A stretch of 64,000 nucleotides of DNA, taken from the NCBI GenBank assembly GCA_001786955.1, contig MFUM01000004.1:4457-68456 (forward strand), written 5' to 3'. The first letter of the stretch is position 1. Every line of letters begins with the position of its first letter. Positions 3,061 to 63,325 of this stretch are shown here, piece after piece. Position numbers and translations under genes: made by a program. This DNA comes from Candidatus Nomurabacteria bacterium RIFCSPHIGHO2_12_FULL_42_19 (lineage in GTDB: Bacteria > Patescibacteriota > Minisyncoccia > Phycocordibacterales > UBA9973). A model generated the notes under the pieces. The model was not told where the DNA came from. It ran no database searches and worked only from the letters and a program-made list of their open reading frames with translations.

Positions 3061-3100
3061 CTAAGTAAAAATAATTATAGCAAGTGCTGATAAAATGTAA

Positions 3101-3130
3101 ACCCCCACATCTATATATAAGTGTGGGGGT
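3101..3130 (-). terminator. intrinsic terminator after tgt
   Basis: ACCCCCACAt...GTGTGGGGGT hairpin followed by a U-rich tract on the minus strand. Confidence 0.6.
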
Positions 3131-3138
3131 AAAGGATT

Positions 3139-4338: not shown

Positions 4339-4418
4339 TGATTTTGCGAAATCACGTCACGCAAGTTAATTCTGATGAATTATGTCGTGTTCTCCTTTAA
4401 AACACGACCGGCGCGACG
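4339..4418 (-). promoter_or_regulatory. two-hairpin leader motif, copy L2, abutting the tgt ATG (with an extra internal hairpin)
   Basis: TGATTTTGCGAAATCA (4339-4354). CGTCACGC (4355-4362) pairs with GCGCGACG (4411-4418). Inserted hairpin GTCGTGTT/AACACGAC at 4384-4408. Confidence 0.5.
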
Positions 4419-9224: not shown

Positions 9225-9626
9225 ATGTATTTTCTTTTAATTTTATTTTTTACATCGCTTCTCGGAATCATTTTTATGATCGGGAAAAAGTTGGTTTTAC
9301 TGAAAAACGGGCAGATATTGAGCAGAGAAGAAACTTTTTTAAAAGCCCCTTATTTGGAAGAATGGAAGCATTTGACCGTTAAAAACATAAAAAAGCACGG
9401 TTATACGGGGCTCGTAGCCACAATCAGACTCTATGTCCGATCTTCCAATCTTTTAAAAAATAAATATCAAGAAGTAAAAATTAGAATAAAAAATGTGCGC
9501 GAAAAGAGCCAAAACGGCGGCTTATCAGAAAAAAAGGAAGCCAGTAAGTTTTTAAAAATGATTTCGGAATACAAACATAAAATCAGAGAAATAAAGCATA
9601 AAATACACGAGGAAGAAAATTTGTAA
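9225..9626 (+). CDS. hypothetical membrane-anchored Lys-rich protein
   Basis: Single N-terminal TM helix and a charged tail. No family recognised. Confidence 0.4.
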   Translation: MYFLLILFFTSLLGIIFMIGKKLVLLKNGQILSREETFLKAPYLEEWKHLTVKNIKKHGYTGLVATIRLYVRSSNLLKNKYQEVKIRIKNVREKSQNGGLSEKKEASKFLKMISEYKHKIREIKHKIHEEENL

Positions 9627-9658
9627 ATGTGTTAGTATATTGAAGTTAAAATAATATT

Positions 9659-9731
9659 GCCGGCATAGCTCAGTTGGTAGAGCACTTCTTTTGTAAAGAA
9701 GATGTCCGGGGTTCGATCCCTCGTGCCGGCT
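9659..9731 (+). tRNA. tRNA-Thr (anticodon UGU)
   Basis: Manual cloverleaf: acceptor GCCGGCA/TGCCGGC, anticodon stem CTTCT/AGAAG, loop TTTGTAA, T-loop TTCGATC. Confidence 0.9.
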
Positions 9732-25145: not shown

Positions 25146-27167
25146 ATGAAGGAATCTAAAAACAAATTGCAAGGTATTATTTCCATCTCTTCAAAAGGCA
25201 CAGGCTATGTGGCAACCGGAGAAGTGAAGAATAAGGGCCAGGACCCGGAAATTGATTTCCAGCATTTAAATACCGCCCTGCACGGAGATATGGTAGAGAT
25301 AATCTTGCACCCGAAAGGTAAAAATCGCCAAACTGCTGAAGTTTCAAAAATAATATCGCGCGCAAAAATGAATTTCGCGGGAGTTCTGGAAGAAGAAAAC
25401 AAAATGTTCTTCCTGAAACCGGACGATACAAAAATGTATACAGATATTCTAATCCCAACCAAGTTTTTAAATAATGCGAAAGTTGGACAAAAGGTTTTTG
25501 TGGAAATAATTTCATGGAAAGATCCCCACAAGGCTCCGGAAGGAAAAGTAATAAAAGTTTTAGGCCGTCCGGGAGACAATGATACTGAAATGGAAAGTAT
25601 TGCGATAGAAAAAGGCTTTGATGCGAAACTTCCGCATAAAGTGGAAGAAGAAGCAAGGAAAATAAAGCAAAACGGCATTAAAGAAACCGACTATGCCGGA
25701 CGCAGAGATTTTCGCAAAACCCTGACCTTCACTATTGACCCCTCGGATGCGAAAGATTTTGATGATGCGATATCTTTCAGATTCCTCCCCTCCTTAAATA
25801 AGGAGGGGGCAGGGGGTGGTAATTCAAAAGACCACCCCGCCTCCGGCACCCCTCCTAAAAAAGGAGGGGAAGAGCAATATGAAGTCGGCATACACATCGC
25901 CGATGTCTCGCATTATGTAAAAATCGGCAGTGCTTTAGATGAAGAAGCGCGAGAAAGAGGAACTTCGGTATATTTGGTAGATAGGACGATACCAATGCTG
26001 CCGGAAACGCTTTCTAATGATTTGTGCTCTCTGGTGCCAAATAAAGACCGGCTTACTATGAGCGCAGTATTTATCATAGATAAAAATGCTCATGTAAAAA
26101 GCAAATGGTTCGGGCGCACGGTTATACATTCAAAAAAAAGATTTACTTACGAAGAAGCCGAGGAGTTAATAAAAAAATCCGCTGCGCCGTTCCATAAAGA
26201 ACTTTTTATCTTGAACAGCTTGGCAAAAAAATTAACCGGGGAAAGATTTGCGCAGGGCGCAATATCGCTTGACCAGGAAGAAGTAAAATTTGTTTTGGAT
26301 AAAAATGGAGTGCCGTTGAAAGTAATAAAAAAAGAGCGCGGCGATTCAAACAGGCTGATTGAGGAATTTATGCTCCTGGCAAATAAAAAAGTGGCGGAGG
26401 TCTTGTCTCCAAAAAATATAAAGGGTGTGAAAGATGAAGGCGTATCCATATACCGAGTGCACGATCTGCCGAGTAAGGAAAAAATGGCCGATCTGGCGTT
26501 TTTTTTGCGAAGTTTGGGACATAGAGTCTCCTTGCAGAACGGCCTTATCCCGACATATGAAATAAATAAGCTTCTAGAGAGTTTGGCCGGCAAAAATGAA
26601 GAAGATACGGTGCATCGCGCAGTTATCCGTTCTATGGCTAAAGCGCTTTATTCCACCAAAAATATCGGGCATTACGGTCTGGCTTTTCAATATTATACTC
26701 ACTTCACTTCCCCGATTAGGCGCTATCCGGACATCATGGTGCACAGACTTCTGGAAAAATTCCTCTCTGGCAAAAAAATAAAAAAGGAGGATTTAAAAGA
26801 GAAATTAATCGAATATGAAAAAATCGCCCTAAATGCATCCGAACAGGAAAAACGCGCCGCAGATGCCGAACGAGCTTCCATAAAATATAAACAAGTGGAA
26901 TATATGTCCAGATATCTGGGAAAAAGCTTCGACGGGGTAATCAGCGGGATAACCGAGTGGGGCATGTATGTGGAAGAACTAGAGACAAAATGCGAAGGTT
27001 TGGTGCGGGTACGTGATATGAATGACGATTTTTATATTTTCAATGAAAAAAAATTGGAATTAACCGGACAAAAAAAGAAAAAAAAGTACAGGCTCGGCGG
27101 CCGTGTCAAAATAAAAGTAAAATCGGTTGATTTGGAGAGAAAAACGATAGATTATATATTGACATGA
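25146..27167 (+). CDS. rnr: ribonuclease R
   Basis: RNB domain motifs (TIDPSDAKDFDDAIS, HIADVSHYV, YSTKNIGHYGLA..YTHFTSPIRRYPD) and a C-terminal S1 domain. The 24954 extension is rejected. Confidence 0.9.
   Translation: MKESKNKLQGIISISSKGTGYVATGEVKNKGQDPEIDFQHLNTALHGDMVEIILHPKGKNRQTAEVSKIISRAKMNFAGVLEEENKMFFLKPDDTKMYTDILIPTKFLNNAKVGQKVFVEIISWKDPHKAPEGKVIKVLGRPGDNDTEMESIAIEKGFDAKLPHKVEEEARKIKQNGIKETDYAGRRDFRKTLTFTIDPSDAKDFDDAISFRFLPSLNKEGAGGGNSKDHPASGTPPKKGGEEQYEVGIHIADVSHYVKIGSALDEEARERGTSVYLVDRTIPMLPETLSNDLCSLVPNKDRLTMSAVFIIDKNAHVKSKWFGRTVIHSKKRFTYEEAEELIKKSAAPFHKELFILNSLAKKLTGERFAQGAISLDQEEVKFVLDKNGVPLKVIKKERGDSNRLIEEFMLLANKKVAEVLSPKNIKGVKDEGVSIYRVHDLPSKEKMADLAFFLRSLGHRVSLQNGLIPTYEINKLLESLAGKNEEDTVHRAVIRSMAKALYSTKNIGHYGLAFQYYTHFTSPIRRYPDIMVHRLLEKFLSGKKIKKEDLKEKLIEYEKIALNASEQEKRAADAERASIKYKQVEYMSRYLGKSFDGVISGITEWGMYVEELETKCEGLVRVRDMNDDFYIFNEKKLELTGQKKKKKYRLGGRVKIKVKSVDLERKTIDYILT
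25784..25870 (+). repeat. family A element (modules Y then X), in frame in rnr
   Basis: CCTCCCCTCCTTaaatAAGGAGGGGGCAGGGGGTGGTaattcaaaagACCACCCCGCCTCCGGCACCCCTCCTaaaaaAGGAGGGG. A 30-nt stretch is identical to pheS 40782-40826. Confidence 0.8.
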
Positions 27168-29100: not shown

Positions 29101-31374
29101 TTATTTCGCAATTTGAGTAGCTTCTTCGAATTTTACCGAGAGAAGTTTGGAAGCTTCGTTGGAGCCGATGGTGACGCCGTAAAGAATTCCGGCTCTGGAC
29201 ATCGTTTCGCGGTTGTGGGTAACGACGATAAGCTGGGATTGCTTGGAGAGCTTCTCCAGCATATCCCCGTATTTTCGGGAGTTTGCTTCATCCAGCGCCG
29301 CATCCGTTTCGTCCAGCACCAAAAAAGGCGGCGGATTGACTTGCGACATAGCGAAAAGAAGGGCAATGGAAGTAAGCGACCTTTCTCCCCCGGAGAAAGC
29401 GTGAAGTTCCTTGACTTTCTTGCGCGGCAAAGAGACATTGATTTCTATTCCTTTTTCAATAACGATGTTCTCATCATCTTCTGATTCCCCCATTTCATCG
29501 TCATCTTCATTGATTTCATCAACTTTTTTCTTCTTAGTTTCAATAATAGAAATAGATCCGTGTCCGCCGCCAAACATTAATGAAAAGAATTCTTGAAACT
29601 CTACGTTGATTTTTTTGACACCTTCCTTGAATTCCGTATCTATTTTTTCCTTCAAATCAGCAATAAGTATAACCAGAGATTCAATGCTTTTGGATAAATC
29701 TTCCATTTCTTTCGTTAAAAATTGATCCCGCCCGGAAACTTCTTTATATTCCTTTATCAATTCCGCTCCGTTGCCCAGGCCCGTATCTTCTAATTTTATT
29801 TTTATGCGCTCAATTTTTTTCTTTTGGTCTTCTTGGTTATGCAATTCCCCGTTGTTTTCAATTTTATAGTCCTTATAAGAAAAAACTTCCCGTCCAATCA
29901 GGATTTCCCCTTCTTTTATCTCATTTTCAAAAGATTCGGCCCTATTTTTCAAATTCCCTTCTTTGATAGCCACAAGTTCCAGAGCGGAAGACAATTCTTG
30001 TTGTCTGACTCTCCAGGCAAATTTCTCCCGTTCAAGATCGCGTAAGGCCTCCATTTCCTTGTTTATTTCTTGTTTCAGTATCTCTATTGATTTGGCAATT
30101 TCTTTTTCTTTGCTTTCAATCCCTTTCATTTCTTCCAAGATTGCCTGCTGGGTTTTTTTTAGTTTTTCAATTTCTAAATTGTGGCTGGATTCATCCTTGT
30201 CATTTTGAGAGAATTTTTTCAAAATATTCTTAATACTCTCCAAAACGGGCCTAATCTCCTCAATACTTTCTTTTAAAAAAGCCAAATCTATAGAATTATT
30301 TATCTCACTGATTATGGCTTTGATTTCTTCCTGTGAAATTTCTATAAATAGGGATTTCTGTTCTTTCCTGCGTTCTTCCATTTCAACCATTCCCTCTATC
30401 CGCCCAAGCTTGCGTTCTATTTCACTTTTTACTCCGCGAAGGGAGTTGAGGCCTTCCTCAATTTTTCTCAATTCTTCTATTTTACCCCCACCCATCCTCC
30501 CCCTTATTAAGGGGGAGGTGTCAGAATGACGGAGGGGGTCGTTGTTTTCAACAATAGAAATTTTACCAGTTACATTTTTAAGTTCATTTGAAAGCTTGTT
30601 CCTTTCAGATGATAAATCGGCTTTCTCTTTCTCCAAAAAGATGCTTTCTTTCTTCAGATATTCCCCGTAAAGAGCCGTCAGCTCTGTTTGCATTTCTTTT
30701 GTTTTTTCAAATTTTTCCACCTGTTTCTTGAGAAAGTTAAGATGTGGGGCATTTTCCCGCCGCATTAAGGAAACCTCTTTCATGTTTTCATTCGTCCGTT
30801 CAAGTTTTCTCTCGCTTTCTTTTATCTTATATTGATAAATTTTAAGTCCCAAGGCATCTTCTACCATTTCTTTTTTTTCTCTTGCATTGGCGCTCAAAAT
30901 CCTGTCTGTCTCGCCCTGAGAAATAATGTGATGCCCGGAAGAACCTATGTTGACCGAGGCCAGCAAATTGTGAATATCCTTCAGTCTGACTTCTGTGCCA
31001 TTTAAAATATATTTATTCAACCCATCGGAAAAAACCTCGCGGGAAATTGAAATAACATCATAATTCAAATTAATATTCTCTCCCCCGTCATTGGAAAGCT
31101 TGAAAATTTTGTCGGAATTATTGAAATAGATGGTGACGGACGCCCGTGAGGCTTTTGGCAGATTTTTAGAACCTTTAAAAATGAGATCCGAACCGCCTTT
31201 TCCGCGCATGGATTTCATGGATTGTTCGCCCAAAACAAAGCGGATGGATTCCACCACATTGGATTTTCCGGATCCGTTCGGGCCGACAATGGAAACAATG
31301 GGATTTTCAAACTCTAAAACAGTTTTTTGGGCAAAAGACTTAAAACCATTTAGCTGGAGTGTTTTGAGCCGCAT
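29101..31374 (-). CDS. smc: SMC-like chromosome segregation ATPase, short (757 aa), no recognisable hinge
   Basis: Walker A GPNGSGKSN, signature LSGGERSL and Walker B LVLDETDAALD. The middle is coiled-coil. Confidence 0.8.
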   Translation of the reverse strand: MRLKTLQLNGFKSFAQKTVLEFENPIVSIVGPNGSGKSNVVESIRFVLGEQSMKSMRGKGGSDLIFKGSKNLPKASRASVTIYFNNSDKIFKLSNDGGENINLNYDVISISREVFSDGLNKYILNGTEVRLKDIHNLLASVNIGSSGHHIISQGETDRILSANAREKKEMVEDALGLKIYQYKIKESERKLERTNENMKEVSLMRRENAPHLNFLKKQVEKFEKTKEMQTELTALYGEYLKKESIFLEKEKADLSSERNKLSNELKNVTGKISIVENNDPLRHSDTSPLIRGRMGGGKIEELRKIEEGLNSLRGVKSEIERKLGRIEGMVEMEERRKEQKSLFIEISQEEIKAIISEINNSIDLAFLKESIEEIRPVLESIKNILKKFSQNDKDESSHNLEIEKLKKTQQAILEEMKGIESKEKEIAKSIEILKQEINKEMEALRDLEREKFAWRVRQQELSSALELVAIKEGNLKNRAESFENEIKEGEILIGREVFSYKDYKIENNGELHNQEDQKKKIERIKIKLEDTGLGNGAELIKEYKEVSGRDQFLTKEMEDLSKSIESLVILIADLKEKIDTEFKEGVKKINVEFQEFFSLMFGGGHGSISIIETKKKKVDEINEDDDEMGESEDDENIVIEKGIEINVSLPRKKVKELHAFSGGERSLTSIALLFAMSQVNPPPFLVLDETDAALDEANSRKYGDMLEKLSKQSQLIVVTHNRETMSRAGILYGVTIGSNEASKLLSVKFEEATQIAK
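30484..30540 (-). repeat. family A module X copy, in frame in smc
   Basis: The coding strand GACCCCCTCCGTCATTCTGACACCTCCCCCTTAATAAGGGGGAGGATGGGTGGGGG encodes DPLRHSDTSPLIRGRMGGG. Confidence 0.65.
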
Positions 31375-33041: not shown

Positions 33042-33075
33042 AAAATAATGAACGGGGTGAACAATTTGTCAATTC

Positions 33076-33133
33076 ACCTCACCCCCGACCCCTCTCCTTA
33101 TCAAGGAGAGGGGTGCCAAAGGCGGGGTGAGGT
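33076..33133 (-). repeat. family A module Y-like nested hairpin, intergenic (between rpmF and nusB)
   Basis: Outer stem ACCTCACCCC/GGGGTGAGGT. Inner stem CCCCTCTCC-ttatcaa-GGAGAGGGG. Confidence 0.65.
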
Positions 33134-33432: not shown

Positions 33433-35208
33433 ATGGAAAAGACTGAAAAACTAGGCAATTTAAGGCATACTCTGGCTCACCTGCTCGCATCGGCCATCGG
33501 AGAGATTTATAAATTTGATAAAATCAAACTTACCCTCGGTCCGGCCATAGATAATGGCTTTTATTATGATATTGATTTTTGCGGCGAAAAAATGACCGAT
33601 GCGGATTTGAAAAAAATTGAAGATAAAATGCGGAAAAATTTGCCTAAATGGACAGAATGGGAACATAAAGAAATAAGCAAGGACGAAGCGTTAGAATTTT
33701 TCAAAAACGAATACAAGGCGGAATTAATAAATGAAATCGCCCTACGCGGAGAGAAAATTACTACTTATACTTGCGGAGGATTTACTGATTTATGCCGTGG
33801 TGGACACTTGGCGCATCCGTCTAAAGAAATAGATCCGGATTCTTTCAAGCTGGACCGCGTGGCCGGCGCTTACTGGCGAGGAGATGAGAAGAACAAAATG
33901 CTCACCCGAATTTACGGATTGGCTTTTGAGACCAAAGAAGAACTGGATGCATATTTAACACAAAGAGAGGAAGCAGAAAAAAGAGACCATCGAAAGCTCG
34001 GACAAGAGCTTGATATTTTTATTTTTGATGACGATGTCGGCCCGGGACTTCCGCTTTGGTTGCCAAATGGCGCCGTGATTATTGAAGAACTGGAAAAATT
34101 AGCAAAAGAAACGGAAGAAAAAGCCGGATATGTTCGTGTGCGCACTCCCCATATTGCCAAAGAATCAATGTATAAAAAAAGCGGGCATTTGCCTTATTAT
34201 GCAGACAGCATGTATTCGCCGATGGACTGTGAAGGAGAAAATTACTATCTCAAAGCGATGAATTGCCCGCACCATCATAAAATTTTTGCCGCGCGGCCAA
34301 AAAGCTATCGTGATTTGCCCCTGCGGCTTGCCGAATATGGCACAGTCTATCGTTATGAAAAATCCGGAGAACTTTTCGGGCTTATGCGCGTACGCTCCCT
34401 CTCAATGAATGACGCGCATATTTATTGTTCGGAAAAACAATTCGCGAATGAATTTCGCGCAGTTAATGAAATGTATCTTAAATATTTTAAAATTTTCGGA
34501 GTTGAAAAGTATATAATGCGATTCTCTACCCATGATCCGAAAGAACTTGGAAAAAAATATGTGGACGAACCGGAGCTCTGGCTGAAAACGGAAAAAATGG
34601 TCCGTGATGTTCTGATTGAATCAAAAATTCCATATGTTGAGGTGCCGAATGAAGCGGCTTTTTATGGGCCAAAAATAGATGTGCAAGTCTGGAGTGCTAT
34701 TGGGAAAGAGTTTACTCTGGCCACCAACCAGGTTGATTTTGCAGTGCCTAAGCGTTTTGATTTAACATTCACAAATAAAGAAGGCAAGGCAGAAACTCCG
34801 CTTTGTATCCATCGTGCGCCGCTCGGCACCCATGAAAGATTTATCGGCTTCTTGATTGAGCATTATGCCGGCATCTTCCCTCTTTGGCTCTCGCCAGTGC
34901 AGGTAAAAGTAATTCCTGTCCGCACAAATCATAATGAATATGCGAAGCAGATTTTTGAATTATTAAAAGAAAATAACATCCGTGCGGAATTGGATGATAG
35001 CGATGAAAACCTCGGCACAAAAGTCCGCGATGCAAAAAATAAAAAAATGCCTTACTGGATAGTCATCGGCGACAAAGAAATAGAAGCAAAAAAAGTAACT
35101 CTTGAATCCCGCCTGCCTGCGCAGGCAGGCGACGCTGGACAATTAGGACAAATTTCAAAAGAAGAACTCGTCGCAAAACTTGTGGCCGAGGTCAAAATTA
35201 AAATATAA
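33433..35208 (+). CDS. thrS: threonyl-tRNA synthetase lacking the N-terminal TGS domain
   Basis: Starts at the editing-domain HTLAHLL motif. Class II core and a C-terminal anticodon-binding domain. TATAAA lies 6 nt before the ATG at 33433. Confidence 0.93.
   Translation: MEKTEKLGNLRHTLAHLLASAIGEIYKFDKIKLTLGPAIDNGFYYDIDFCGEKMTDADLKKIEDKMRKNLPKWTEWEHKEISKDEALEFFKNEYKAELINEIALRGEKITTYTCGGFTDLCRGGHLAHPSKEIDPDSFKLDRVAGAYWRGDEKNKMLTRIYGLAFETKEELDAYLTQREEAEKRDHRKLGQELDIFIFDDDVGPGLPLWLPNGAVIIEELEKLAKETEEKAGYVRVRTPHIAKESMYKKSGHLPYYADSMYSPMDCEGENYYLKAMNCPHHHKIFAARPKSYRDLPLRLAEYGTVYRYEKSGELFGLMRVRSLSMNDAHIYCSEKQFANEFRAVNEMYLKYFKIFGVEKYIMRFSTHDPKELGKKYVDEPELWLKTEKMVRDVLIESKIPYVEVPNEAAFYGPKIDVQVWSAIGKEFTLATNQVDFAVPKRFDLTFTNKEGKAETPLCIHRAPLGTHERFIGFLIEHYAGIFPLWLSPVQVKVIPVRTNHNEYAKQIFELLKENNIRAELDDSDENLGTKVRDAKNKKMPYWIVIGDKEIEAKKVTLESRLPAQAGDAGQLGQISKEELVAKLVAEVKIKI
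35110..35131. repeat. family B perfect 22-bp palindrome, in frame in thrS
   Basis: CGCCTGCCTGCGCAGGCAGGCG encodes RLPAQAGD. Confidence 0.7.
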
Positions 35209-36291: not shown

Positions 36292-38397
<2,106 letters not shown>

Positions 38398-38412: not shown

Positions 38413-40269
38413 TTACCGCACTTGCCAACCATTATTCTCCTTGATTTTATTGGTTATTTGAGTCATAACTGCATTTATTTCCGCATCTGTAAGAGTCCTA
38501 TCAAAAGACTGGAAAACTACCCTAAAAGCATAAGAGATTTTATCGTCCTTTTTAAACTCATCAAAGAGTTCCGGGCCACGAATTGCAAGACTTCCGGCAT
38601 TATTTTTTATAATTTTTTCTACATCTTTACTTTTAACTCCCTCCGGCACCCAGACGGCAATATCGCGTGCGATAAAAGGAAACAAGGACCACATCTTAAA
38701 AGCTCCGCCTGTGTGCTTTTGCGAACGGTGACGTTGCGAAGCAGGATATTCCTGAGCAAAAGCATCAGGCGAGGCTGATTTACAAAATTCTTCAAGACTC
38801 ATTTCTTTTACTTCTTTTTTATTTCCATAAGCCACATTCATTTCTTCCCCGCTCTTTTTAAACACCGTTCCAATTTCAAAAATTTTTATTTCGTCCATCC
38901 CCAACAAAGGCACGTTGAGTTGGTTTAATTTCAAACTTTCCTTCAGTCCGTCAGTCAGATTCGTCCGCAAAAATTTTTTATCCGAAGCGCTCTGCATCAC
39001 TTCCACTTCCCCACTATTACAAAAAGTATAAGTCATTACTTCACTATATCCTTCGCCGAGCAATTTATTTCTCGCCCAGGAAATCTTCGCATAAGTTTCA
39101 TTTACTTTTGTTTTAAAATTAATTTTTGGTATTTTTCCTTTTACTTTGTCATAGCCAATAATCCTTCCGATTTCTTCTGCCATATCTTCCTCAATTACTA
39201 AATCAAGCCGCATCGGTGGCACGGTGATTACGTATTCTTCTCCCCCTGCTAAGGGGGAGTGCCCATCGGGCGAGGGGGTCTTTGTATATTCAAAGTTATA
39301 TCTTTTCAAAATATCTTCCACTTGAGACACAGAAATGTCCAAACCAAGAATTTTTGAAATTTTTTCCACCGAGAAAGAAAGCTTTCTGATCTCCTGTTTT
39401 TGGGGATAGACATCGACAATGTTTTCAAAAATAGCTTCCGGACACATTTCTAAAATAAGCGCCGATAATTCCAGCATAGCGTGCGGGCCAAGTTCCGGAG
39501 ATAAATCGTTTTCAAAGCGCTTGCGTGCGTCCGTAAATATATTCAAAGCCTGCGCGGTTTTTCTTACGGAAGTTGGATTAAAATTAGCAACTTCCAGAAT
39601 TATATCTTTTGTATTATTATCTACTTCCGCAATTTTCCCGCCCTTGATGCCAGCAATGGCTAAGACATTCTTATCGTCCGAAATGACCATATTTGAAGAT
39701 TTGAACTTTATTTCTTTATTGTCCAGGGTGGTCATCTCCTCGCCGTCTTTACCGTTTCGGACAATTATGTCGCCCTGTATTTTATCCAAATCAAAAGCAT
39801 GTGCGGGCTGACCGCAATCAAACATCACAATATTCGCCGCATCTACCACATTATTTATGCTTCTCTGCCCTATTGACTCCAGATGCTTTATGACCCATTC
39901 CGGACTGGTGCCAATTTTAATATTCTTTACAATTCTCCCCATATATCTTCTACATTTATCTGATTGGACATCAATTTTTAATTCTGCCTGCCCCGCCGGA
40001 GCCTTGGGCGCAGGCGGGGGAATTTTATACTTCGGAGCAGGATCAACATACTTTATATTTAAAAGTGAAGCGAGTTCACGCGCCACGCCCTGGTGGCTAA
40101 GTAAATCATGCGCGCGGTTTGGCAAGATTTTCAAATCAAAAATATTATCATCCCCTTTTTTCTCTAAACTCTCAACTTCACAAAGATGGTAATTAAAAAC
40201 ATCCACAAATTTTTCTGCATCAGGTGCTTCCGGTATATACCATTTGAGCCAATTGTAAGAAATCAACAT
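38413..40269 (-). CDS. pheT: phenylalanyl-tRNA synthetase beta subunit (short form)
   Basis: B3/4, B5 and FDX-ACB-like C-terminal regions. Directly downstream of pheS. Confidence 0.9.
   Translation of the reverse strand: MLISYNWLKWYIPEAPDAEKFVDVFNYHLCEVESLEKKGDDNIFDLKILPNRAHDLLSHQGVARELASLLNIKYVDPAPKYKIPPPAPKAPAGQAELKIDVQSDKCRRYMGRIVKNIKIGTSPEWVIKHLESIGQRSINNVVDAANIVMFDCGQPAHAFDLDKIQGDIIVRNGKDGEEMTTLDNKEIKFKSSNMVISDDKNVLAIAGIKGGKIAEVDNNTKDIILEVANFNPTSVRKTAQALNIFTDARKRFENDLSPELGPHAMLELSALILEMCPEAIFENIVDVYPQKQEIRKLSFSVEKISKILGLDISVSQVEDILKRYNFEYTKTPSPDGHSPLAGGEEYVITVPPMRLDLVIEEDMAEEIGRIIGYDKVKGKIPKINFKTKVNETYAKISWARNKLLGEGYSEVMTYTFCNSGEVEVMQSASDKKFLRTNLTDGLKESLKLNQLNVPLLGMDEIKIFEIGTVFKKSGEEMNVAYGNKKEVKEMSLEEFCKSASPDAFAQEYPASQRHRSQKHTGGAFKMWSLFPFIARDIAVWVPEGVKSKDVEKIIKNNAGSLAIRGPELFDEFKKDDKISYAFRVVFQSFDRTLTDAEINAVMTQITNKIKENNGWQVR
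38708..38769. repeat. family E hairpin element, in frame in pheT
   Basis: TGCTTTTGC / GCAAAAGCA arms around the core TGCGAACGGTGACGTTGCGAAGCAGGATATTCCTGAGC. Compare trmD 23908-23974. Confidence 0.65.
39237..39280 (-). repeat. family A module X copy, in frame in pheT
   Basis: The coding strand GACCCCCTCGCCCGATGGGCACTCCCCCTTAGCAGGGGGAGAAG encodes TPSPDGHSPLAGGEE. Confidence 0.65.
39984..40020. repeat. family B-like GC-rich insert, in frame in pheT
   Basis: CTGCCTGCCCCGCCggagccttgggcgcaGGCGGGGG encodes PPPAPKAPAGQAE. Confidence 0.55.
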
Positions 40270-40280
40270 AAATTAAGTTA

Positions 40281-41072
40281 TTAAAACTGATTGAGGCGTA
40301 AATCTCCCTGATAAAAAAGTCTAACATCCGGAATACCCCATTTAATCATAGCAATACGGTCCAATCCTCCGCCGAAAGCAAAACCTTGGTATTTTTTAGG
40401 GTCCAAGCCGCAATTTTTGAGTACATTTGGGTGTAAAACACCTGAACCCATCATCTCAAGCCACTTCCCTTTGAACTTGGCGAAAACTTCCAGAGATGGT
40501 TCGGTAAAAGGGAAAAAACTGGGGCGAAATTCTACCTCCACATCATCACTCAACATTTTTTTGTAAAAATGGGTTAATACGCCCTTCAAATCAGCAAGGG
40601 AAACATTTTCTCCCACCATTGCTCCGTCTATCTGATAAAATTGCATTTCGTGCGTTGCATCCGTAGCTTCGTTGCGGAAAACTTTTCCGATGGAAATAAA
40701 AGCGGCTGGCAATCTGCCGTCTTTGCCCGCTTGCTCAATCGCGCGGGCGGTTACGGTCGTCGTATGTGTTCGCAACACAGATTTTGAATTACCACCCCCT
40801 GCCCCCTCCTTATCAAGGCGGGGAGGATTCTTTTCTCCTCCTGCCTGAGGAGGAGTGCCCGAAGGACGAGGTGGTTCTTTTATCCAAAATGTATCCTGCA
40901 TATCCAGCGCCGGATGGTCTTTCGAAAAATTCAAGGCGTAAAAGTTATACCAGTCGCTCTCCAGCTCCGGCCCGGTCGCGATTTCAAAACCAAGCTCCGA
41001 AAAAGCCCGATAAGCCTCCTCGGCTAACAGAGAAAGCGGATGTATTGTGCCCTTTTTTATGTCTTCGTTCAT
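40281..41072 (-). CDS. pheS: phenylalanyl-tRNA synthetase alpha subunit (catalytic core only)
   Basis: Class II motifs (LRTHTT, FRNEATDATH, GFAFGGGLDRIAM). The N-terminal coiled coil is absent. Confidence 0.9.
   Translation of the reverse strand: MNEDIKKGTIHPLSLLAEEAYRAFSELGFEIATGPELESDWYNFYALNFSKDHPALDMQDTFWIKEPPRPSGTPPQAGGEKNPPRLDKEGAGGGNSKSVLRTHTTTVTARAIEQAGKDGRLPAAFISIGKVFRNEATDATHEMQFYQIDGAMVGENVSLADLKGVLTHFYKKMLSDDVEVEFRPSFFPFTEPSLEVFAKFKGKWLEMMGSGVLHPNVLKNCGLDPKKYQGFAFGGGLDRIAMIKWGIPDVRLFYQGDLRLNQF
40782..40875 (-). repeat. family A element (modules X then Y), in frame in pheS
   Basis: The coding strand ACCACCTCGTCCTTCGGGCACTCCTCCTCAGGCAGGAGGAGAAAAGAATCCTCCCCGCCTTGATAAGGAGGGGGCAGGGGGTGGTAATTCAAAA encodes PPRPSGTPPQAGGEKNPPRLDKEGAGGGNSK. 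Confidence 0.8.
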
Positions 41073-44818: not shown

Positions 44819-47014
44819 TTATAACATACTTAAAAATTCTTTCTCGCTTAATATTTTTACACCCAGCTTTTCGGCAACTTTAAGCTTGGAGCCCGGGTCC
44901 GCTCCGGCTACGATATAGGAAGTATTTTTTGAGACGGAACCCGCGACTTTCCCTCCGAGAGCCAGGATTCTTTCTTTAGCAATTTCTCGGGACATTTGGG
45001 AAAGCGTCCCGGTCAAAACGAAATGTAATTCGGTAAATTTGTCGGCTTTCTTTTTTTCCGCTCTTTCCACGATTACGCCATTTCTTTGCAATTTTTTTAT
45101 GAAATTCAAATTATTTTTATTATTAAAAAAATCATAAACGCTTTTTGATACAGCCGGGCCGATGTTTTCTATACTATCTATCTCAGCAAGGACTCCCCTT
45201 GCTGAAGTTATTAATTTTTCCAGAGTGCCAAAGTGTAGCGCTAAATCTCTTGCTGTTTCCTCCCCCACATGCAGGATTCCGAGCGCCCACAGAAAGCGTG
45301 AAAAAGGGATTTTCTTTTTATTTTTTATTTCATTGATTATGTTTTCCGCCGATTTTTCCCCAAAGCGTTCCAGGAGCGCTATATCTTCTTTTTTAAGGGT
45401 GAAAATGTCGGCTGCGTCGGTAATGAGCCCTTCGTCCTTGAATCTTCTCAGTATTTTCGGGCCTAATTCATAAATTTCAAAGACAGAAACAAAATGCTCT
45501 AAATACCTTTCGTTTTTTGCCGGGCATTTAGGATTGCTGCAATAATGAGCGACAGAGATATTCTCCAGCTCGCAAGATTTCTGAGTCGCGTAAGTCCCAC
45601 CCGGTACCCCGGGAAGGGTCAAGCGCGAAGAAATCTCGTGAGCCGAAGAATCCCCCATCTTTTTCTTCCTAACTTTTCCTCCGCAGGCCGGGCATTTGTC
45701 CGGCATTTTGAATTTTTTTTCTTTGCCTGTCCGCATCCGAATCAGCACCTCCACTACTTTCGGTATCACATCGCCGGCTTTTTCTATCACGACCGTATCC
45801 CCGATACGCAAATCAAGGCGCTCTATCTGGTCCATATTATGGAGAGTAGCCTTGGACACCCGGGAACCCGCCACCAGCGTCGGCTCAAAAAGAGCGAGCG
45901 GTGTCAATACACCGGTACGCCCGACATTTACCTTTATATCCTTTACTATTGTTGTCGCTCTTTCCGCCGGATATTTGAATGCCACCATAAAGCGCGGCGC
46001 CTTGCCGACCACCCCTAGTGTCTCCTGTAATTTCAAATCGTCCACCGAGACAACGACGCCGTCCGTGCCGTAGAGAAAATCGGGCCTGATTTTTTCAAAT
46101 TTCTTTATGAAAGTAAACACTTCATTCATATTAGCGCACAGAGCCTCCAATTTCTCAACTTTAAATCCAATCCTGCGGAGCATTTGATGTTTTTCGGAGT
46201 GGGTTTGCATAGCCGAATCATGAATTTTCTGAGTCGCGTAAGTCCCACCCCGTACTCGGGGAAGGGTCAAGCGCGAAGAAAATTCATGATTCGGCGTAGC
46301 CTCGGCTATATCGTAAGCAAAAAAATCCAATTCCCTTTTGGCGGCTAATTTTGGATCCAGCTGCCGCAAACTTCCTGCCGCGGCATTTCGGGTATTGGCA
46401 AAAAGGGGTTTTCCTTTTTTCTCATTTTCTTTATTCAATTTAACGAGCATTTCTTTGCTCAAAAGCGCTTCTCCGCGGATTTCCAGGTGCGGAAGGTATG
46501 GTTTTTGGAGAAGAAGTGGAATTGAATGTATGGTTTTGAGATTTTGGGTTATGTCTTCCCCAATTAATCCGTCTCCTCTCGTTGCGCCGCGCATAAACTT
46601 GCCATTTTCATAAACAAGCGAAACTGCCAACCCGTCAAACTTGACTTCGCAAAAATAATTAAATTTCGCGCGCGCAGGTAAAAGCTTTTTGATTCTTGTT
46701 TCCCACTCATATAATTCTGTCTCACTAAAAGCATCATTAAGAGAAAGCATGCGGGTTTTGTGCTGAACTTTTACAAATTTATTAAGCGGTTTGCCGGCTA
46801 CTCTGTTTTCCGGAGCATTTAAATCGTTAAATTCGGGGTATTTTTTCAAAAGCTCTTTAAGCTCGTGAGTGAGAGAATCGTAAACATCGTCGGTTACACC
46901 GGGGGCGTTTTGGGTATGATATAAATCACGCAAACGCGCGATTTCTTTTCGTAATTTTTTTACCCGCTTGGATTCGGCGAGGCTGGTTCTTTTTTTATCT
47001 TCCACCTCTTTCAT
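44819..47014 (-). CDS. ligA: NAD-dependent DNA ligase
   Basis: Adenylation motif CEVKFDGLA, OB fold, Zn finger CPACG...CSNPKCPAK, HhH and BRCT domains. About 60 aa longer than usual because of two inserts. Confidence 0.95.
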   Translation of the reverse strand: MKEVEDKKRTSLAESKRVKKLRKEIARLRDLYHTQNAPGVTDDVYDSLTHELKELLKKYPEFNDLNAPENRVAGKPLNKFVKVQHKTRMLSLNDAFSETELYEWETRIKKLLPARAKFNYFCEVKFDGLAVSLVYENGKFMRGATRGDGLIGEDITQNLKTIHSIPLLLQKPYLPHLEIRGEALLSKEMLVKLNKENEKKGKPLFANTRNAAAGSLRQLDPKLAAKRELDFFAYDIAEATPNHEFSSRLTLPRVRGGTYATQKIHDSAMQTHSEKHQMLRRIGFKVEKLEALCANMNEVFTFIKKFEKIRPDFLYGTDGVVVSVDDLKLQETLGVVGKAPRFMVAFKYPAERATTIVKDIKVNVGRTGVLTPLALFEPTLVAGSRVSKATLHNMDQIERLDLRIGDTVVIEKAGDVIPKVVEVLIRMRTGKEKKFKMPDKCPACGGKVRKKKMGDSSAHEISSRLTLPGVPGGTYATQKSCELENISVAHYCSNPKCPAKNERYLEHFVSVFEIYELGPKILRRFKDEGLITDAADIFTLKKEDIALLERFGEKSAENIINEIKNKKKIPFSRFLWALGILHVGEETARDLALHFGTLEKLITSARGVLAEIDSIENIGPAVSKSVYDFFNNKNNLNFIKKLQRNGVIVERAEKKKADKFTELHFVLTGTLSQMSREIAKERILALGGKVAGSVSKNTSYIVAGADPGSKLKVAEKLGVKILSEKEFLSML
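45568..45642 (-). repeat. family C hairpin element copy 1, in frame in the ligA Zn finger (75 nt)
   Basis: Outer arms GCTCGCAAGATTTC/GAAATCTCGTGAGC. Core TTCTGAGTCGCGTAAGTCCCACCCGGTACCCCGGGAAGGGTCAAGCGCGAAGAAA. Confidence 0.8.
46212..46295 (-). repeat. family C hairpin element copy 2, in frame in the ligA adenylation region (84 nt)
   Basis: Perfect 17-bp arms GCCGAATCATGAATTTT/AAAATTCATGATTCGGC. The core differs from copy 1 at 3 positions. Confidence 0.8.
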
Positions 47015-49238: not shown

Positions 49239-50063
49239 CTAAAAAAGACGCAATTCAAAAAGAAACGCCAAGAGCGCGCCTAAAACCAGATATGGAGCAA
49301 AGGGAATTTCGCTTTTTATTCCGTATTTTTTAGAAAAAACAACAAGAGAAAGACCGACAATGGCCCCAAGCCAGAAAGCGACCACAAGGCCGGAGAATGC
49401 GCGCGCGAGCCCAAGCAGCCATCCCAAGCCGACTGCCAGTTTGGCATCCCCCAGCCCCATCCAAGTTCCGGAAGACACGAGCCAAAATAAATAAAAAGGT
49501 AAAGCAATCAAGAAGCCGGACAAAAATTCCAAAATTGAAGGCATGTGCGGATAAAAACCTGCCTGCGCCCAGCCTGCGCTGGCAGAAGACAGGCCAGAAT
49601 TGTTAAAAAAGAATAAGCCGATAAAACCAAGAGCGCCTAAGGCAAAAGCGAGCGAGTCGGGGATTATTTTATGCCGGAGGTCGTAGACGGCAATAACCAC
49701 CAGAAGCGCGAATATCGCGGCATAATAAGCATAAGCGATAATAAATGCGGGAGTAAAAAAACTAAACTGTCCGCCCAGGGCGGAAAACTTTAAAAAGAGC
49801 GCCGCAAAAATCAGGCCGGTCGCCAGCTCGACCAAAGGATAGGAAATTGAGATTCTTGTTTTGCAGGTTCGGCATCTACCTCCCAAAACAAAAAAACTTG
49901 CGAGCGGGACAAGCTCATACCAGCAAAGAGTATTCTGACAGGACATACAGGCGCTTCTCCCGCCGAAGGATCTCTCGGTGTTCAGCCGGGCAATGACAAC
50001 ATTTAAAAAACTTCCGATAATCAGGCCAAAAAAAAAGAAAATAATTGTAACTACAATGATCAT
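49239..50063 (-). CDS. pilD: prepilin peptidase (A24 family)
   Basis: N-terminal Cys motif CMSC...CRTC and a catalytic Asp context (GLGDAKL). Confidence 0.9.
   Translation of the reverse strand: MIIVVTIIFFFFGLIIGSFLNVVIARLNTERSFGGRSACMSCQNTLCWYELVPLASFFVLGGRCRTCKTRISISYPLVELATGLIFAALFLKFSALGGQFSFFTPAFIIAYAYYAAIFALLVVIAVYDLRHKIIPDSLAFALGALGFIGLFFFNNSGLSSASAGWAQAGFYPHMPSILEFLSGFLIALPFYLFWLVSSGTWMGLGDAKLAVGLGWLLGLARAFSGLVVAFWLGAIVGLSLVVFSKKYGIKSEIPFAPYLVLGALLAFLFELRLF
49558..49585. repeat. family B GC-rich insert, in frame in pilD
   Basis: CCTGCCTGCGCCCAGCCTGCGCTGGCAG. pilD peptide SASAGWAQAG. Confidence 0.55.
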
Positions 50064-62148: not shown

Positions 62149-62391
62149 CTACCGATAATAAATTAAATGCTTTTTTAAAAACGCTCGACCGGAGCCAGAT
62201 TTTAAATATTTTTCAAAATTAAAAGCCTTGTATTTGTCTTTTGTTGCAAAGTAAAAATCTAATTCCACTGGCAAACGAGTCGAGGTAGCGGGCACGTTAC
62301 CTTTTTTGTGTCTACTCAATCTGTCTTTCAAATTGTCAGTACAACCAATATAAAAACCATCTTTACATTTTAAACTGTACACATAATACAT
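62149..62391 (-). CDS. GIY-YIG nuclease superfamily protein (80 aa)
   Basis: YYVYSLKC.DGFYIGCTDNLKDRLSRH matches the GIY-YIG N-terminal motif. Confidence 0.8.
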   Translation of the reverse strand: MYYVYSLKCKDGFYIGCTDNLKDRLSRHKKGNVPATSTRLPVELDFYFATKDKYKAFNFEKYLKSGSGRAFLKKHLIYYR

Positions 62392-62476: not shown

Positions 62477-62563
62477 CGGATGAGGTGGGATTCGAACCCA
62501 CGGTCCTTTTAAGGGGACGGCGGTTTAGTAAACCGCTACCTTAAACCACTCGGTCACTCATCC
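62477..62563 (-). tRNA. type II (long variable arm) Ser-like tRNA with anticodon ACU
   Basis: Manual fold: acceptor GGATGAG/CTCATCC, D stem ACC/GGT, anticodon stem GCGGT/ACCGC, loop TTACTAA, T arm GTGGG-TTCGAAT-CCCAC, discriminator G. Confidence 0.7.
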
Positions 62564-62907: not shown

Positions 62908-63273
62908 TTAGGCTCTTTTCTTTTTTAAACTTTTAACTGCTTTGTTTGTAATTCCTTTCCACTCGCTTTTTAATTTTTTGGCTAGAGCTTTGATGTCTTT
63001 CTCATGTAATTTATACTGCTTGGCATAATTTTCGGTTACAACATCTACCGCTTTGTGATAAACAGGAGCGCTGACTTTTTTAGCCTTTTTAACTTCACTT
63101 ATTACCTCTTTCTTTATTTTATCCATCAAGACTTTCGCTTTCTTTTGATGCGCCTTAGCCTTAGGACCAAATAAATAATACGCTCCGGCACCAAGCGCCG
63201 CTACTCCCGCTCCCACTGCCGCCATTTCACCCCCCGACATCCCCTTTTTTTTATTTGTATTATTTTTTTTCAT
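62908..63273 (-). CDS. small Lys-rich protein with a Gly/Ala-rich N-terminal helix (YtxH-like?)
   Basis: GGEMAAVGAGVAALGAGAYYLFGPKA followed by a charged helical region. Confidence 0.4.
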   Translation of the reverse strand: MKKNNTNKKKGMSGGEMAAVGAGVAALGAGAYYLFGPKAKAHQKKAKVLMDKIKKEVISEVKKAKKVSAPVYHKAVDVVTENYAKQYKLHEKDIKALAKKLKSEWKGITNKAVKSLKKKRA

Positions 63274-63325
63274 TTGATTTGATTTTGCGAAATCATGCCG
63301 CGCAACCGTCCGTTTTAGCGTAGCG
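63274..63325 (-). promoter_or_regulatory. two-hairpin leader motif, copy L4, near the ATG of the YtxH-like gene
   Basis: TGATTTTGCGAAATCA (63280-63295). TGCCGCGC (63296-63303) partially pairs with GCGTAGCG (63318-63325). Confidence 0.45.

Follow-up and report, generated by a model that had tools for sequence, protein, structure and literature searches.

A tail-to-tail pair of a small hairpin repeat lies in frame within pheS of a Candidate Phyla Radiation bacterium, and the same repeat unit brackets a DUF559 endonuclease gene in other bacterial phyla

The 94-base insert in the pheS gene of Candidatus Nomurabacteria bacterium RIFCSPHIGHO2_12_FULL_42_19 is a tail-to-tail pair of a small hairpin repeat that is scattered, in frame, through essential genes of this Candidate Phyla Radiation (CPR) bacterium. 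The same unit brackets a small DUF559 endonuclease gene in several other bacterial phyla, which may be the enzyme that moves it. Our analysis was centred on a 64,000-nt stretch of contig MFUM01000004.1 (hereafter, the window), and the loci and PheS proteins used for comparison are denoted by L and P numbers, respectively. A first-pass annotation of the window had described two modules, X and Y, occurring as X then Y inside pheS and, circularly permuted, as Y then X inside rnr. This observation proved correct, and all the features it described are present in the sequence.

The pheS gene (40281-41072, minus strand) encodes a phenylalanyl-tRNA synthetase alpha subunit of 263 aa reduced to its catalytic core. 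Its identity is supported by a Pfam PF01409 match on its cluster representative (P0001) and by PDB matches to PheS alpha chains (E 3.5e-61), and it aligns only to residues 97-342 of the Thermus thermophilus alpha chain, thus lacking the N-terminal extension. The coding strand of 40877-40779 reads GAACCACCTCGTCCTTCGGGCACTCCTCCTCAGGCAGGAGGAGAAAAGAATCCTCCCCGCCTTGATAAGGAGGGGGCAGGGGGTGGTAATTCAAAATCT, and the X-Y element at 40782-40875(-) is in frame, encoding the peptide EPPRPSGTPPQAGGEKNPPRLDKEGAGGGNSK (residues 66-97). Module X (40833-40876(-)) comprises arm A (ACCACC, 40870-40875), a second small hairpin, h3 (GTCC-ttc-GGGC, 40857-40867), which had been overlooked in the first-pass annotation, and hairpin H, CTCCTCCT-caggc-AGGAGGAG (40835-40855). 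Module Y (40782-40826(-)) comprises hairpin H, CCTCCCCGCCTT-gat-AAGGAGGGGG (40802-40826), a CA spacer, arm A' (GGGGGTGGT, 40791-40799) and the tail AATTCAAAA (40782-40790).

In rnr (RNase R), the element reads Y then X, TCCTCCCCTCCTTAAATAAGGAGGGGGCAGGGGGTGGTAATTCAAAAGACCACCCCGCCTCCGGCACCCCTCCTAAAAAAGGAGGGG (25786-25875), and the in-frame dimer (25785-25875(+)) encodes LPSLNKEGAGGGNSKDHPASGTPPKKGGEE. The perfect run shared by both genes is 32 nt long (25798-25829(+) against 40782-40813(-)) and not 30 nt as previously noted, and the 18-mer GGGGGTGGTAATTCAAAA occurs twice in the window, against 0.10 expected from shuffles. Module Y is about 94% identical between the two genes (44 of 47 positions, counted by hand) and module X about 68% identical (30 of 44 alignment columns), compared to the earlier estimates of about 93% and 65%. 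The described covariation of the X stem, from CCCTCCT/AGGAGGG in rnr to TCCTCCT/AGGAGGA in pheS, is real. In line with the proposed pairing, ACCACC...GGTGGT closes the pheS element in the RNA minimum-free-energy fold (-44.6 kcal/mol, z -3.2), while in rnr GGGGGTGG/CCACCCC forms the central hairpin (RNA -55.1 kcal/mol, z -6.5; the DNA fold shows four separate hairpins).

The same family was also found at three further sites that had not been noticed before, so that the window holds seven units at five sites. A solitary X unit lies in frame in pheT (39238-39280(-)), where it encodes TPSPDGHSPLAGGEE. A single complete unit (A-h3-H-A') is located inside an SMC-like gene (30484-30541(-); RNA fold -35.9 kcal/mol, z -4.4), and another lies in the spacer between the nusB-NUDIX gene and rpmF (33070-33132(-); RNA fold -44.2 kcal/mol, z -6.8). 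The latter carries the variant CCCCTCTCC/GGAGAGGGG, also seen in an Acidobacteria-like contig (L118).

To describe the family formally, we first applied RNAalifold to a MAFFT alignment, but this recovered only h3, as loop-length variation misaligned hairpin H. We therefore employed a hand-specified structure and a covariance model (R1) built only from X copies. R1 scored the pheS X at 65.8 bits (E 5e-14), the rnr X at 55.4 bits (25830-25871(+)) and the pheT unit at 41 bits, detected the SMC-like unit with E 2.8e-4, and gave hits on both strands of the spacer unit. Further, R1 matched Y copies on the opposite strand, both in rnr (25785-25821(-), E 4e-4) and in pheS (40790-40825(+), E 2.6e-3). 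On the model alignment, 97.4% of cells pair and 9 of 12 pairs show double changes; none of 500 shuffles reached the observed values and slid controls were much lower, in support of hairpins that are maintained.

These results show that X and Y are not two different modules, since X is the reverse-complement orientation of the Y-type unit with the extra mini-hairpin h3. Indeed, in L014 and L146 the reverse complement of X reads hairpin-h3-GGGGTGGT-AATTC. The basic unit, of about 35-45 nt, is a hairpin with an 8-9 bp stem (CCCCTCCTT-loop-AAGGAGGGG), a short spacer that may hold h3, and the G-rich arm GGGGGTGGT, often followed by AATTC. X-Y and Y-X are therefore the two ways of pairing one unit in inverted orientation, as with the tail-to-tail and head-to-head REP dimers of Di Nocera et al. 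2013 (PMC3733652): in Y-X the G-rich and C-rich arms meet in the centre, and in X-Y they lie on the outside. "Circular permutation" describes the arrangement correctly, but it is not the most basic account of it.

The earlier interpretation, namely that the permutation reflects either independent modular hairpins or an origin from a tandem or circular X-Y-X-Y form, was thus only partly supported. In its favour, X and Y are separable, as Y occurs alone at the orthologous rnr site in L002 and in the PheS protein P0047, while X occurs alone in pheT. A tandem X-Y-X-Y array also exists, directly downstream of a DUF559 gene in locus L078; a circular intermediate was not looked for, as no sequencing reads were included in the analysis. 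Two outcomes had been set in advance as fatal to the proposal, that X and Y would never co-occur elsewhere with their similarity limited to low-complexity G/C runs, or that pheS orthologues would universally carry the segment. Neither was observed, since X and Y co-occur at many sites in many genomes and 64 of 120 close PheS relatives lack any insert. The X-Y order is not special to pheS, as it recurs at the pheT C-terminus (L017, L015 and L099), in L008, in frame in cbiA of the cultivated bacterium Trichlorobacter lovleyi, and next to DUF559 genes. Y-X occurs in rnr, L003, L005, L006, L010, L012, L068 and L081 (four copies), among others, and across the metagenome hits the two orders are about equally common (17 against 18).

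Next, we investigated how the repeat is distributed among genes and genomes. In a scan of species-representative genomes, the 20-mer GGGGCAGGGGGTGGTAATTC hit 14 contigs, ten of which are named Candidatus Nomurabacteria. In 11 of the 14 contigs, as well as in both window copies, the element lies in an ORF of at least 264 aa, always in one frame, and 16 low-GC metagenome or viral loci have at least 168 codons open in that frame. Every copy found inside a long ORF by these exact-motif scans uses one strand and one frame, although one or two other frames are often free of stop codons; hence, stop codons as the sole reason for single-frame use were partly rejected. A BLAST search of plasmids gave two hits, both informative, while that of phages gave none. 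A census of host genes at the protein level was unproductive, with a word-indexed search using a 48-aa Y-X-Y peptide giving one candidate and a phmmer search with the 32-aa pheS peptide against 1.84 billion representatives giving no hit. In Rfam 15, only tRNAs reached threshold in the window, the best hit on the element had an E value of 0.68, and nothing matched the ends of the DUF559 cassettes described below. Acido-Lenti-1 hits in L118 correspond to a different repeat that happens to lie on the same contig. We also considered a chromosome-polarity (KOPS) role, since the motif contains GGGCAGGG, but rejected it because the two window copies lie on opposite strands and follow gene orientation rather than replication orientation.

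The insert is polymorphic among relatives. Of the 120 PheS relatives, 64 are empty (DTFWIKNEKEKVLRTHT), six carry X-Y and one carries Y only. When the insert was masked, the nearest neighbours of each X-Y carrier (89-92% amino-acid identity) were empty, and carriers fell into at least four separate groups, indicating repeated gain. DNA alignment of six pheST operons, which did not include P0047 or P0003, showed clean filled and empty sites in both pheS and pheT. In pheT, the X unit of the window is 42/42 identical to that of L017, absent from L019, L020 and L021, and replaced by a different palindrome in L015. The same PheS loop is a hot spot, holding at least two unrelated long palindromes in other relatives, in L148 (-47.6 kcal/mol) and L149 (-38.6 kcal/mol), and one pheST operon has at least eight variable insertion sites from at least four palindrome families. 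With regard to target-site duplication, the filled and empty sites showed no consistent duplication, AAAAGA flanks X in the window's pheS only, and the insertion seems to replace about 3-4 codons rather than simply add, observations that do not settle the point either way.

At the nucleotide level, X-Y is 79-89% identical between genomes whose third codon positions are only 48-54% identical. The 42/42 identity of the pheT X, between genomes that are 71% identical overall, could however mean selection for a host function rather than recent insertion. At the protein level, the insert replaces the two residues between DSFYITD and LMRTHTS of PDB 2rhq_A, which form a β-hairpin turn, and AlphaFold2 predicts it as coil with low confidence (pLDDT 37-45) between strands 60-64 and 98-102.

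The unit occurs across phyla, in contigs with a GC content from 0.33 to 0.72, and it forms the inverted terminal repeats of a roughly 0.55-kb cassette encoding a DUF559 (Vsr-like PD-(D/E)XK) endonuclease. All seven DUF559 genes found in about 0.93 Mb of loci chosen only by an exact 19-mer lie directly between Y and X. Two further cassettes chosen by protein homology alone (L146, and L147 in a Calditrichia genome) have the same inverted repeats, and R1 scores their ends at 48-66 bits, as high as the pheS X itself. Further, 68 of 120 DUF559 homologues end in X-derived peptides, one of which is ...KPPRPSGTPPLKGGE, against PPRPSGTPPQAGGE in pheS; only Bacteroidota names were returned for the DUF559 proteins with X-like tails. 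The parent ORF is only a DUF559 nuclease domain (PF04480, E 1e-30; PDB 3HRL, E 7.5e-24), with weak matches to restriction and homing nuclease domains, and encodes no recognised transposase.

Taken together, we interpret the pheS insert, with considerable confidence, as a non-autonomous copy of a dispersed, GC-rich, selfish palindromic repeat of the REP / Rickettsia-palindromic-element kind, possibly mobilised by DUF559. In this view, the element landed in the turn of a β-hairpin of PheS, is open in the frame used and is presumably translated into a Gly/Pro/Ser-rich disordered loop that the enzyme tolerates, translation being inferred from the sequence alone. Y-X would be the DUF559 cassette with the gene deleted, in the manner of a MITE, X-Y would correspond to the abutted outer ends of successive units, and the DUF559 nuclease is proposed to make the breaks that copy or move the units. 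Membership of a repeat family, presence/absence polymorphism, hairpin covariation and the bracketing of DUF559 genes rest directly on our data, while mobility driven by the nuclease and the presence of a DUF559 gene in this organism do not. In fact, no DUF559 gene was found in the window or in about 310 kb of related CPR loci, so that the link to this organism is indirect. Moreover, a 120-aa PD-(D/E)XK nuclease is not a known transposase and probably cannot carry out strand transfer alone. DUF559 proteins flanked by near-identical units are only 33-41% identical to each other, which is unusual for a cognate enzyme-site pair, although picking loci by an exact 19-mer inflates the apparent DNA conservation. 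The use of one strand and one frame in genic copies, which stop codons alone do not explain, also speaks against this reading.

Other explanations appear less likely. The DUF559 gene might not be the mobiliser but a homing-type parasite that inserts into the centre of pre-existing Y-X palindromes, a multi-copy safe target, with the units spreading by some other route such as a host process or an unidentified transposase. This is in line with the position of the gene, always exactly where the short central spacer of a Y-X dimer would be, with the divergence of DUF559 proteins, with their absence from the unit-rich CPR loci examined, and with the existence of a characterised homing endonuclease family within the DUF559/Vsr clade (PMC3424549, Table 1; PMC9403480, citing Taylor et al. 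2011). However, the downstream unit overlaps the last ~15 codons and supplies the stop codon in most homologues, suggesting long co-evolution of the gene and its repeat rather than simple insertion, and no alternative mobilising gene was seen in any locus. We regard this alternative as unlikely.

Even less probable is that the element is kept in pheS and pheT for a host function at the RNA or DNA level, such as an mRNA stabiliser, a ribosome-pausing signal (the GGAGG/CCTCC arms mimic the Shine-Dalgarno and anti-Shine-Dalgarno sequences) or a gyrase or terminator-like site as proposed for E. coli REPs. Its slow evolution relative to synonymous sites, including the identity of the pheT X, its single orientation relative to transcription in genes, the exclusive frame use and the hairpin covariation would fit such a role. 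This contrasts with the absence of the insert from most close relatives, the unrelated palindromes in the same loop of others, the occurrence of the unit in both orientations in intergenic DNA of other phyla, its presence in many unrelated genes with no common pathway, and the lack of any matching Rfam family. A selected protein module, a Gly/Pro-rich loop recruited for PheRS function or interaction with the DNA palindromy being secondary, is very unlikely. Although all genic copies use the same peptide frame, encoding hydrophilic and flexible residues, conservation extends to third codon positions (the Gly codons GGG GGT GGT are fixed across genomes), the same DNA occurs in intergenic spacers and unrelated proteins, and the insert is absent from most orthologues and predicted to be disordered.

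In-frame palindromic repeats in essential genes have been a curiosity known mainly from Rickettsia. A second, independent case at high density in a CPR lineage suggests that this is a general consequence of gene-dense, reduced genomes; it accounts for some of the lineage-specific "insertions" in CPR proteins and warns that such segments are repeat DNA and not protein domains. Our literature searches, covering the sequence itself, DUF559 with repeats, Vsr with REP and intragenic repeats in CPR, found no description of this family. Since some REP-like families have no known mobilising enzyme, the consistent bracket around DUF559 genes in Bacteroidota, a Calditrichia genome and other unassigned contigs gives a testable candidate. 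More tentatively, the hairpin-plus-GGGGGTGGT unit and the DUF559 gene may form a previously undescribed, pan-bacterial mobile system in which a roughly 120-aa Vsr-like PD-(D/E)XK nuclease, rather than a tyrosine or DDE transposase, drives the spread of REP-like hairpins. This would give a function to a large domain family of unknown function, and would explain how small palindromes come to sit in frame inside essential genes of reduced genomes such as those of the CPR.

Among known systems, the Rickettsia palindromic elements (RPEs; Ogata et al. 2000, as summarised in PMC10969869 and PMC3733652) are likewise short palindromic repeats of a reduced-genome bacterium, inserted in frame into many unrelated housekeeping genes, translated in a conserved frame, apparently tolerated in surface regions and polymorphic between relatives. 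RPE-1 is about 100-150 bp, and the units described here are 35-45 nt (dimers 85-95 nt). Di Nocera et al. place the small RPEs in the CGTC-tagged superfamily, and the present units carry GGGGGTGGT/ACCACCCC instead. Length, base composition and end tag differ from the published descriptions, the RPE-1 to RPE-10 sequences themselves not having been compared and occurrence of the unit in Rickettsia not having been tested. RPEs are confined to Rickettsia and have no known associated gene, and the present unit is found across phyla.

REP/BIME/REPIN elements and their RAYT transposases (Di Nocera et al. 2013, PMC3733652; Bertels and Rainey 2011) share with our family a unit made of an imperfect hairpin plus a conserved unpaired tag, present in many dispersed copies as singlets, head-to-head and tail-to-tail dimers and clusters, occasional intragenic copies, mostly dimers encoding 20-30 residues, and a single-copy gene bracketed by inverted units, as in the REP-RAYT-REP "REPtron". 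However, the conserved single-stranded part is GCA-GGGGGTGGT(AATTC), or its complement ACCACCCC, with neither GTAG nor CGTC at either end, and in this lineage the copies are mostly inside genes rather than extragenic. The only gene found bracketed by the units is DUF559, a PD-(D/E)XK nuclease and not a Y1 (HUH) transposase; loci were not scanned with a RAYT profile, so a RAYT elsewhere in these genomes is not excluded. As in a MITE, Y-X looks like the terminal inverted repeats of a gene-carrying parent with the interior deleted, and the R1 scores of the cassette ends support repeats shared with such a parent, but no consistent target-site duplication was seen, the parent encodes no recognised transposase, and the "TIR" is itself a hairpin that also exists as a free-standing singlet. 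Finally, the flanked protein belongs to the same fold family as the Vsr-like / EDxHD homing endonucleases (I-Bth0305I family; PDB 3r3p and 3hrl, listed with DUF559 in PMC3424549). Known members sit in group I introns or inteins and target one specific gene, whereas here the gene is free-standing between hairpin repeats that also occur in many copies without it.

The window is about 41% GC and gene-dense, and comes from a Candidate Phyla Radiation (CPR) bacterium close to Candidatus Nomurabacteria; the motif hits and the PheS relatives recovered carry the name Candidatus Nomurabacteria or Patescibacteria/Paceibacterota. Here, pheS lies at 40281-41072 on the minus strand and encodes 263 aa, and is followed by pheT at 38413-40269. 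The first-pass annotation had described two hairpin modules, X and Y, arranged X then Y inside pheS and in the opposite order in rnr, and this observation was confirmed. The pheS coding strand reads arm A (ACCACC), a mini-hairpin h3 (GTCC-ttc-GGGC), a hairpin H (CTCCTCCT-caggc-AGGAGGAG), a linker (AAAAGAAT), a second hairpin H (CCTCCCCGCCTT-gat-AAGGAGGGGG), a spacer CA followed by arm A' (GGGGGTGGT), and a tail (AATTCAAAA), whereas the rnr element at 25785-25875 has the opposite order. The two elements share a 32-nt perfect run, and the 18-mer tail motif was seen twice, while 0.1 copies were expected from shuffled sequences. In line with the earlier description, the folds showed that the outer arms close the pheS element and that the same arms form the central hairpin in rnr.

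Further copies within the window showed that this is a repeat family and not a coincidence between two genes. A solitary X was found in pheT (39238-39280), a complete single unit in an SMC-like gene (30484-30541) and another complete single unit in the spacer at 33070-33132. A scan of one genome per species with GGGGCAGGGGGTGGTAATTC returned 14 contigs, 10 of them named Nomurabacteria. Counting the two window copies, 13 of the 16 sites lie in an ORF of at least 264 aa, and all 13 are on the same strand and in the same frame, giving ...PSL(I/N)KEGAGGGNSK...GTPPxKGGE. The commonest arrangement among these sites is Y-X.

Three results show that X is an inverted Y. Firstly, in the locus L014 and in L146, a cassette fetched by protein identity, the reverse complement of X reads H-TGC-h3-GGGGTGGT-AATTC, that is, a Y that still has h3. 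Further, a covariance model built from 13 X copies only finds Y copies on the opposite strand, with E values of 4e-4 for rnr, 2.6e-3 for pheS and down to 1e-6 for many others. Finally, some contigs (L030, L042 and L070) carry X as the exact reverse complement of Y. There is therefore one unit, and Y-X and X-Y are its two inverted-dimer forms, so that the interpretation of the first-pass annotation, namely a permutation of two modules suggesting either independent hairpins or an origin from a tandem or circular X-Y-X-Y form, was supported only in part. It had been proposed in advance that a lack of co-occurrence of X and Y elsewhere, with similarity limited to low-complexity G/C runs, would count against that interpretation, but X-Y is not peculiar to pheS: it recurs at the pheT C-terminus in three loci (L017, L015 and L099), in the locus L008, in frame in Trichlorobacter lovleyi cbiA (...EHRLPPLSLPEAGGESAWNLPSLDKEGPGVVDTVRIG...) and next to DUF559 genes. 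Among 108 confirmed metagenome sites, a regular-expression count gave 17 Y-X and 18 X-Y, and a tandem X-Y-X-Y exists in the locus L078.

The hairpins are maintained. On the model-derived alignment of 108 distinct rows, 97.4% of cells pair and 9 of 12 pairs show changes on both sides, in 83 cells; no shuffle out of 500 reached the observed pairing or covariation, and sliding the partners by 1-3 columns dropped pairing to 56-74%. Since the alignment is fitted to the model and includes palindromic sites read on both strands, these numbers lean towards the structure. However, the variants can also be seen directly, with H occurring as CCCCTCCT/AGGAGGGG, CTCCTCCT/AGGAGGAG, CTCCCCCT/AGGGGGAG and CCCCTCTCC/GGAGAGGGG, and h3 ranging from GCC/GGC to GCCAAAAAAA/TTTTTTTGGC and CTCCCGC/GCGGGAG.

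To determine whether pheS orthologues universally carry the segment, which had likewise been named as a possible refutation, we sorted the 120 closest PheS sequences by their state at this position. The short ancestral turn (DTFWIKNEKEKVLRTHT, 235 aa) was found in 64, short variants in 20, other long inserts in 29, X-Y in six and Y only in one. With the insert masked, the nearest neighbours of each X-Y carrier are empty alleles at 89-92% identity, and the carriers form at least four separate groups, although the neighbour-joining tree of a 235-aa protein is weak evidence on its own. Filled alleles lack the NEKEK codons, so the empty alleles are not derived from them by excision, and repeated gain at one site is the simplest reading. 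Two of the other long inserts (loci L148 and L149) are unrelated long palindromes with 19-20 bp arms. Alignment of pheST from six relatives showed at least eight variable sites occupied by at least four palindrome families and, in one case, Y variants at the same pheT site in two genomes.

Other palindromes were also observed in frame within the window. On the minus strand inside ligA (44819-47014), two copies of a different element of about 75 nt (64 nt at 91% identity) lie at 45570-45650 and 46218-46298 and encode SRLTLPGVPGGTYATQ and SRLTLPRVRGGTYATQ; both the inner stem (CCCGGGGTACCGGG against CCCCGAGTACGGGG) and the outer stems carry compensatory changes, and the RNA folds are -35.5 and -36.2 kcal/mol. 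Another GC-rich family, with CCTGCC...GGCAGG arms, occurs in tsf (8596-8650), thrS (35098-35149), pheT (39977-40030) and a prepilin peptidase gene (49555-49600). The tsf and peptidase copies are 89% complementary over 37 nt, and the pheT copy is present in the window, L017 and L020 but absent from L015, L019 and L021 (all relatives' loci). In addition, dnaG carries in frame a 41-nt palindrome, GCGGACGTTGGACGTCCG-agttc-CGGACGTCCAACGTCCGC (14506-14546, -41.6 kcal/mol), and gyrB carries a double hairpin (36518-36573), both of which look like further in-frame palindromic inserts. Outside this group, the conserved motif TTGCGYGRCRTGATTTYGCAAAATCAA, read on the minus strand at 412-457, 4319-4364 and 63260-63305, lies 0-6 nt upstream of the ATG of three unrelated genes (the ORF ending at 431, tgt at 4338 and the ORF at 63273); it contains the inverted repeat TTGCG...CGCAA and may be a shared operator or leader.

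We also compared the rate of change of the element with that of its hosts. Between the four genomes with DNA for both genes, X-Y is 79-89% identical, while core third codon positions are 48-54% identical and first plus second positions 80-85% identical. The pheT X is 42/42 identical between the window and L017, although the operons are 71% identical overall. Element divergence does not track host divergence: either the copies are younger than the species, or the sequence is constrained at the nucleotide level, where constraint could come from the machinery that copies the element or from a host function.

With regard to the effect on PheS, the phmmer alignment to PDB 2rhq_A breaks exactly at the insert, with query residues 67-98 replacing residues 109-110, between DSFYITD and LMRTHTS. 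Translation was not observed and is inferred from the open frame. An AlphaFold2 model (mean pLDDT 69, core mostly 80-94) places residues 65-97 in coil with pLDDT 37-45, between strands 60-64 and 98-102, which fits a tolerated excursion at a β-hairpin tip.

The unit is not confined to CPR bacteria. The 19-mer GGAGGGGGCAGGGGGTGGT was found in at least 118 metagenome loci and in three viral contigs; locus GC ranges from 0.33 to 0.72, and 108 of 122 distinct sites have the left arm of the hairpin in place. Cultivated examples are an intergenic Y-X on a Novosphingobium capsulatum plasmid and the T. lovleyi cbiA insert. One contig carrying the unit, L118, also carries several copies of the Rfam Acido-Lenti-1 RNA motif (RF01687, 39-46 bits; 348-392, 4688-4863 and 9625-9671), one pair of which flanks a CCCCTCTCCC/GGGAGAGGGG-TGCCAAAGGC-GGGGTGAGG unit that is nearly identical to the intergenic copy of the window at 33070-33132.

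In two of the loci, L100 and L082, a small ORF lies between a Y upstream and an X that overlaps its 3' end, and this ORF is DUF559 (PF04480, E 1e-30). A tblastn and HMM search of all DNA collected for the analysis (about 1 Mb) found seven DUF559 genes, all of them in loci chosen only by the 19-mer and all directly bracketed as Y-gene-X. Homologues of the L100 protein are mostly from Bacteroidota and, of 120, 68 end in X-derived peptides, including ...KPPRPSGTPPLKGGE, almost the pheS X peptide. Two cassettes fetched by protein identity alone, L146 and L147, have the same structure: ATTCCCCTCC-loop-GGAGGGG-h3-GGGGTGGT, about 70-90 nt, ATG...DUF559..., then ACCACCCC-h3-CCCCTCCTT-loop-AGGAGGGGAATAA. 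The X model, trained only on in-gene Nomurabacteria copies, scores these ends at 66.4, 63.5, 55.5 and 48.1 bits, compared to 65.8 for pheS X itself. The L147 cassette (2880-3410) is complete with its hairpin ends and sits in a Calditrichia genome (MAG BAAHFM010000081.1), between csm4 and csm5 of a type III-A CRISPR-Cas operon, a position that fits a recently inserted mobile cassette.

The DUF559 protein matches PDB 3HRL, an uncharacterised 'endonuclease-like protein' (E 7.5e-24). DUF559 proteins are listed as enriched 14-fold among genes overlapped by predicted inversions (Milman et al. 2023, PMC9881135), which fits inverted repeats at their ends; no paper describing the association with the unit was found. 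Tandem arrays of the unit were seen in L100 (1160-1350), L082 (2395-2510), L024, L128 and L136, namely four X copies at a 49-nt period after a DUF559 gene (L100), three at about 37 nt before one (L082), and arrays of half-units, (ATTCCCCTCCT)x3 followed by (GGGCAGGGGGTGGT)n, the latter suggesting slippage or repeated nicking at the unit. With respect to other nucleases, two LAGLIDADG homing endonuclease ORFs lie near the end of L017, a related Nomurabacteria contig (167-2293), presumably in rRNA introns, which shows that other selfish elements are present in the same lineage. In the window itself, an 80-aa ORF on the minus strand (62149-62391), which was not compared with Pfam, begins MYYVYSLKCKDGFYIGCTDNLKDRLSRHKKG, a GIY-YIG nuclease-like N-terminus, and lies 86 nt from a tRNA gene (62477-62563).

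Taken together, the analysis demonstrates a dispersed, polymorphic hairpin repeat family, its two dimer forms, its in-frame residence in permissive loops and its role as the inverted ends of a DUF559 cassette in other phyla. The mechanism, in contrast, is our inference: Y-X would be the cassette minus its gene, X-Y would be two outer ends abutted, as between successive units or after circularisation, and the DUF559 nuclease would supply the breaks that copy or move the units, with host repair doing the rest. Alternatively, the nuclease gene may be a homing parasite of pre-existing Y-X sites. Some results are not explained. No target-site duplication was seen, and no DUF559 gene is present in the CPR DNA examined. 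The DNA unit is more conserved than the protein (33-41% identity). Genic copies use a single frame even though other frames are often open, and, by our reading of the sequence, the diverged SMC copy enters in that frame but leaves in another, because its loop is 1 nt shorter.

The finding is real and more general than first proposed. As far as we could search, the family, its density inside essential CPR genes, its cross-phylum reach and its DUF559 bracket are new. The kind of element is, however, already known, since the permutation is the ordinary alternative dimer form of a REP/RPE-like repeat, as with the head-to-head and tail-to-tail REP dimers tabulated by Di Nocera et al. 2013 (PMC3733652).
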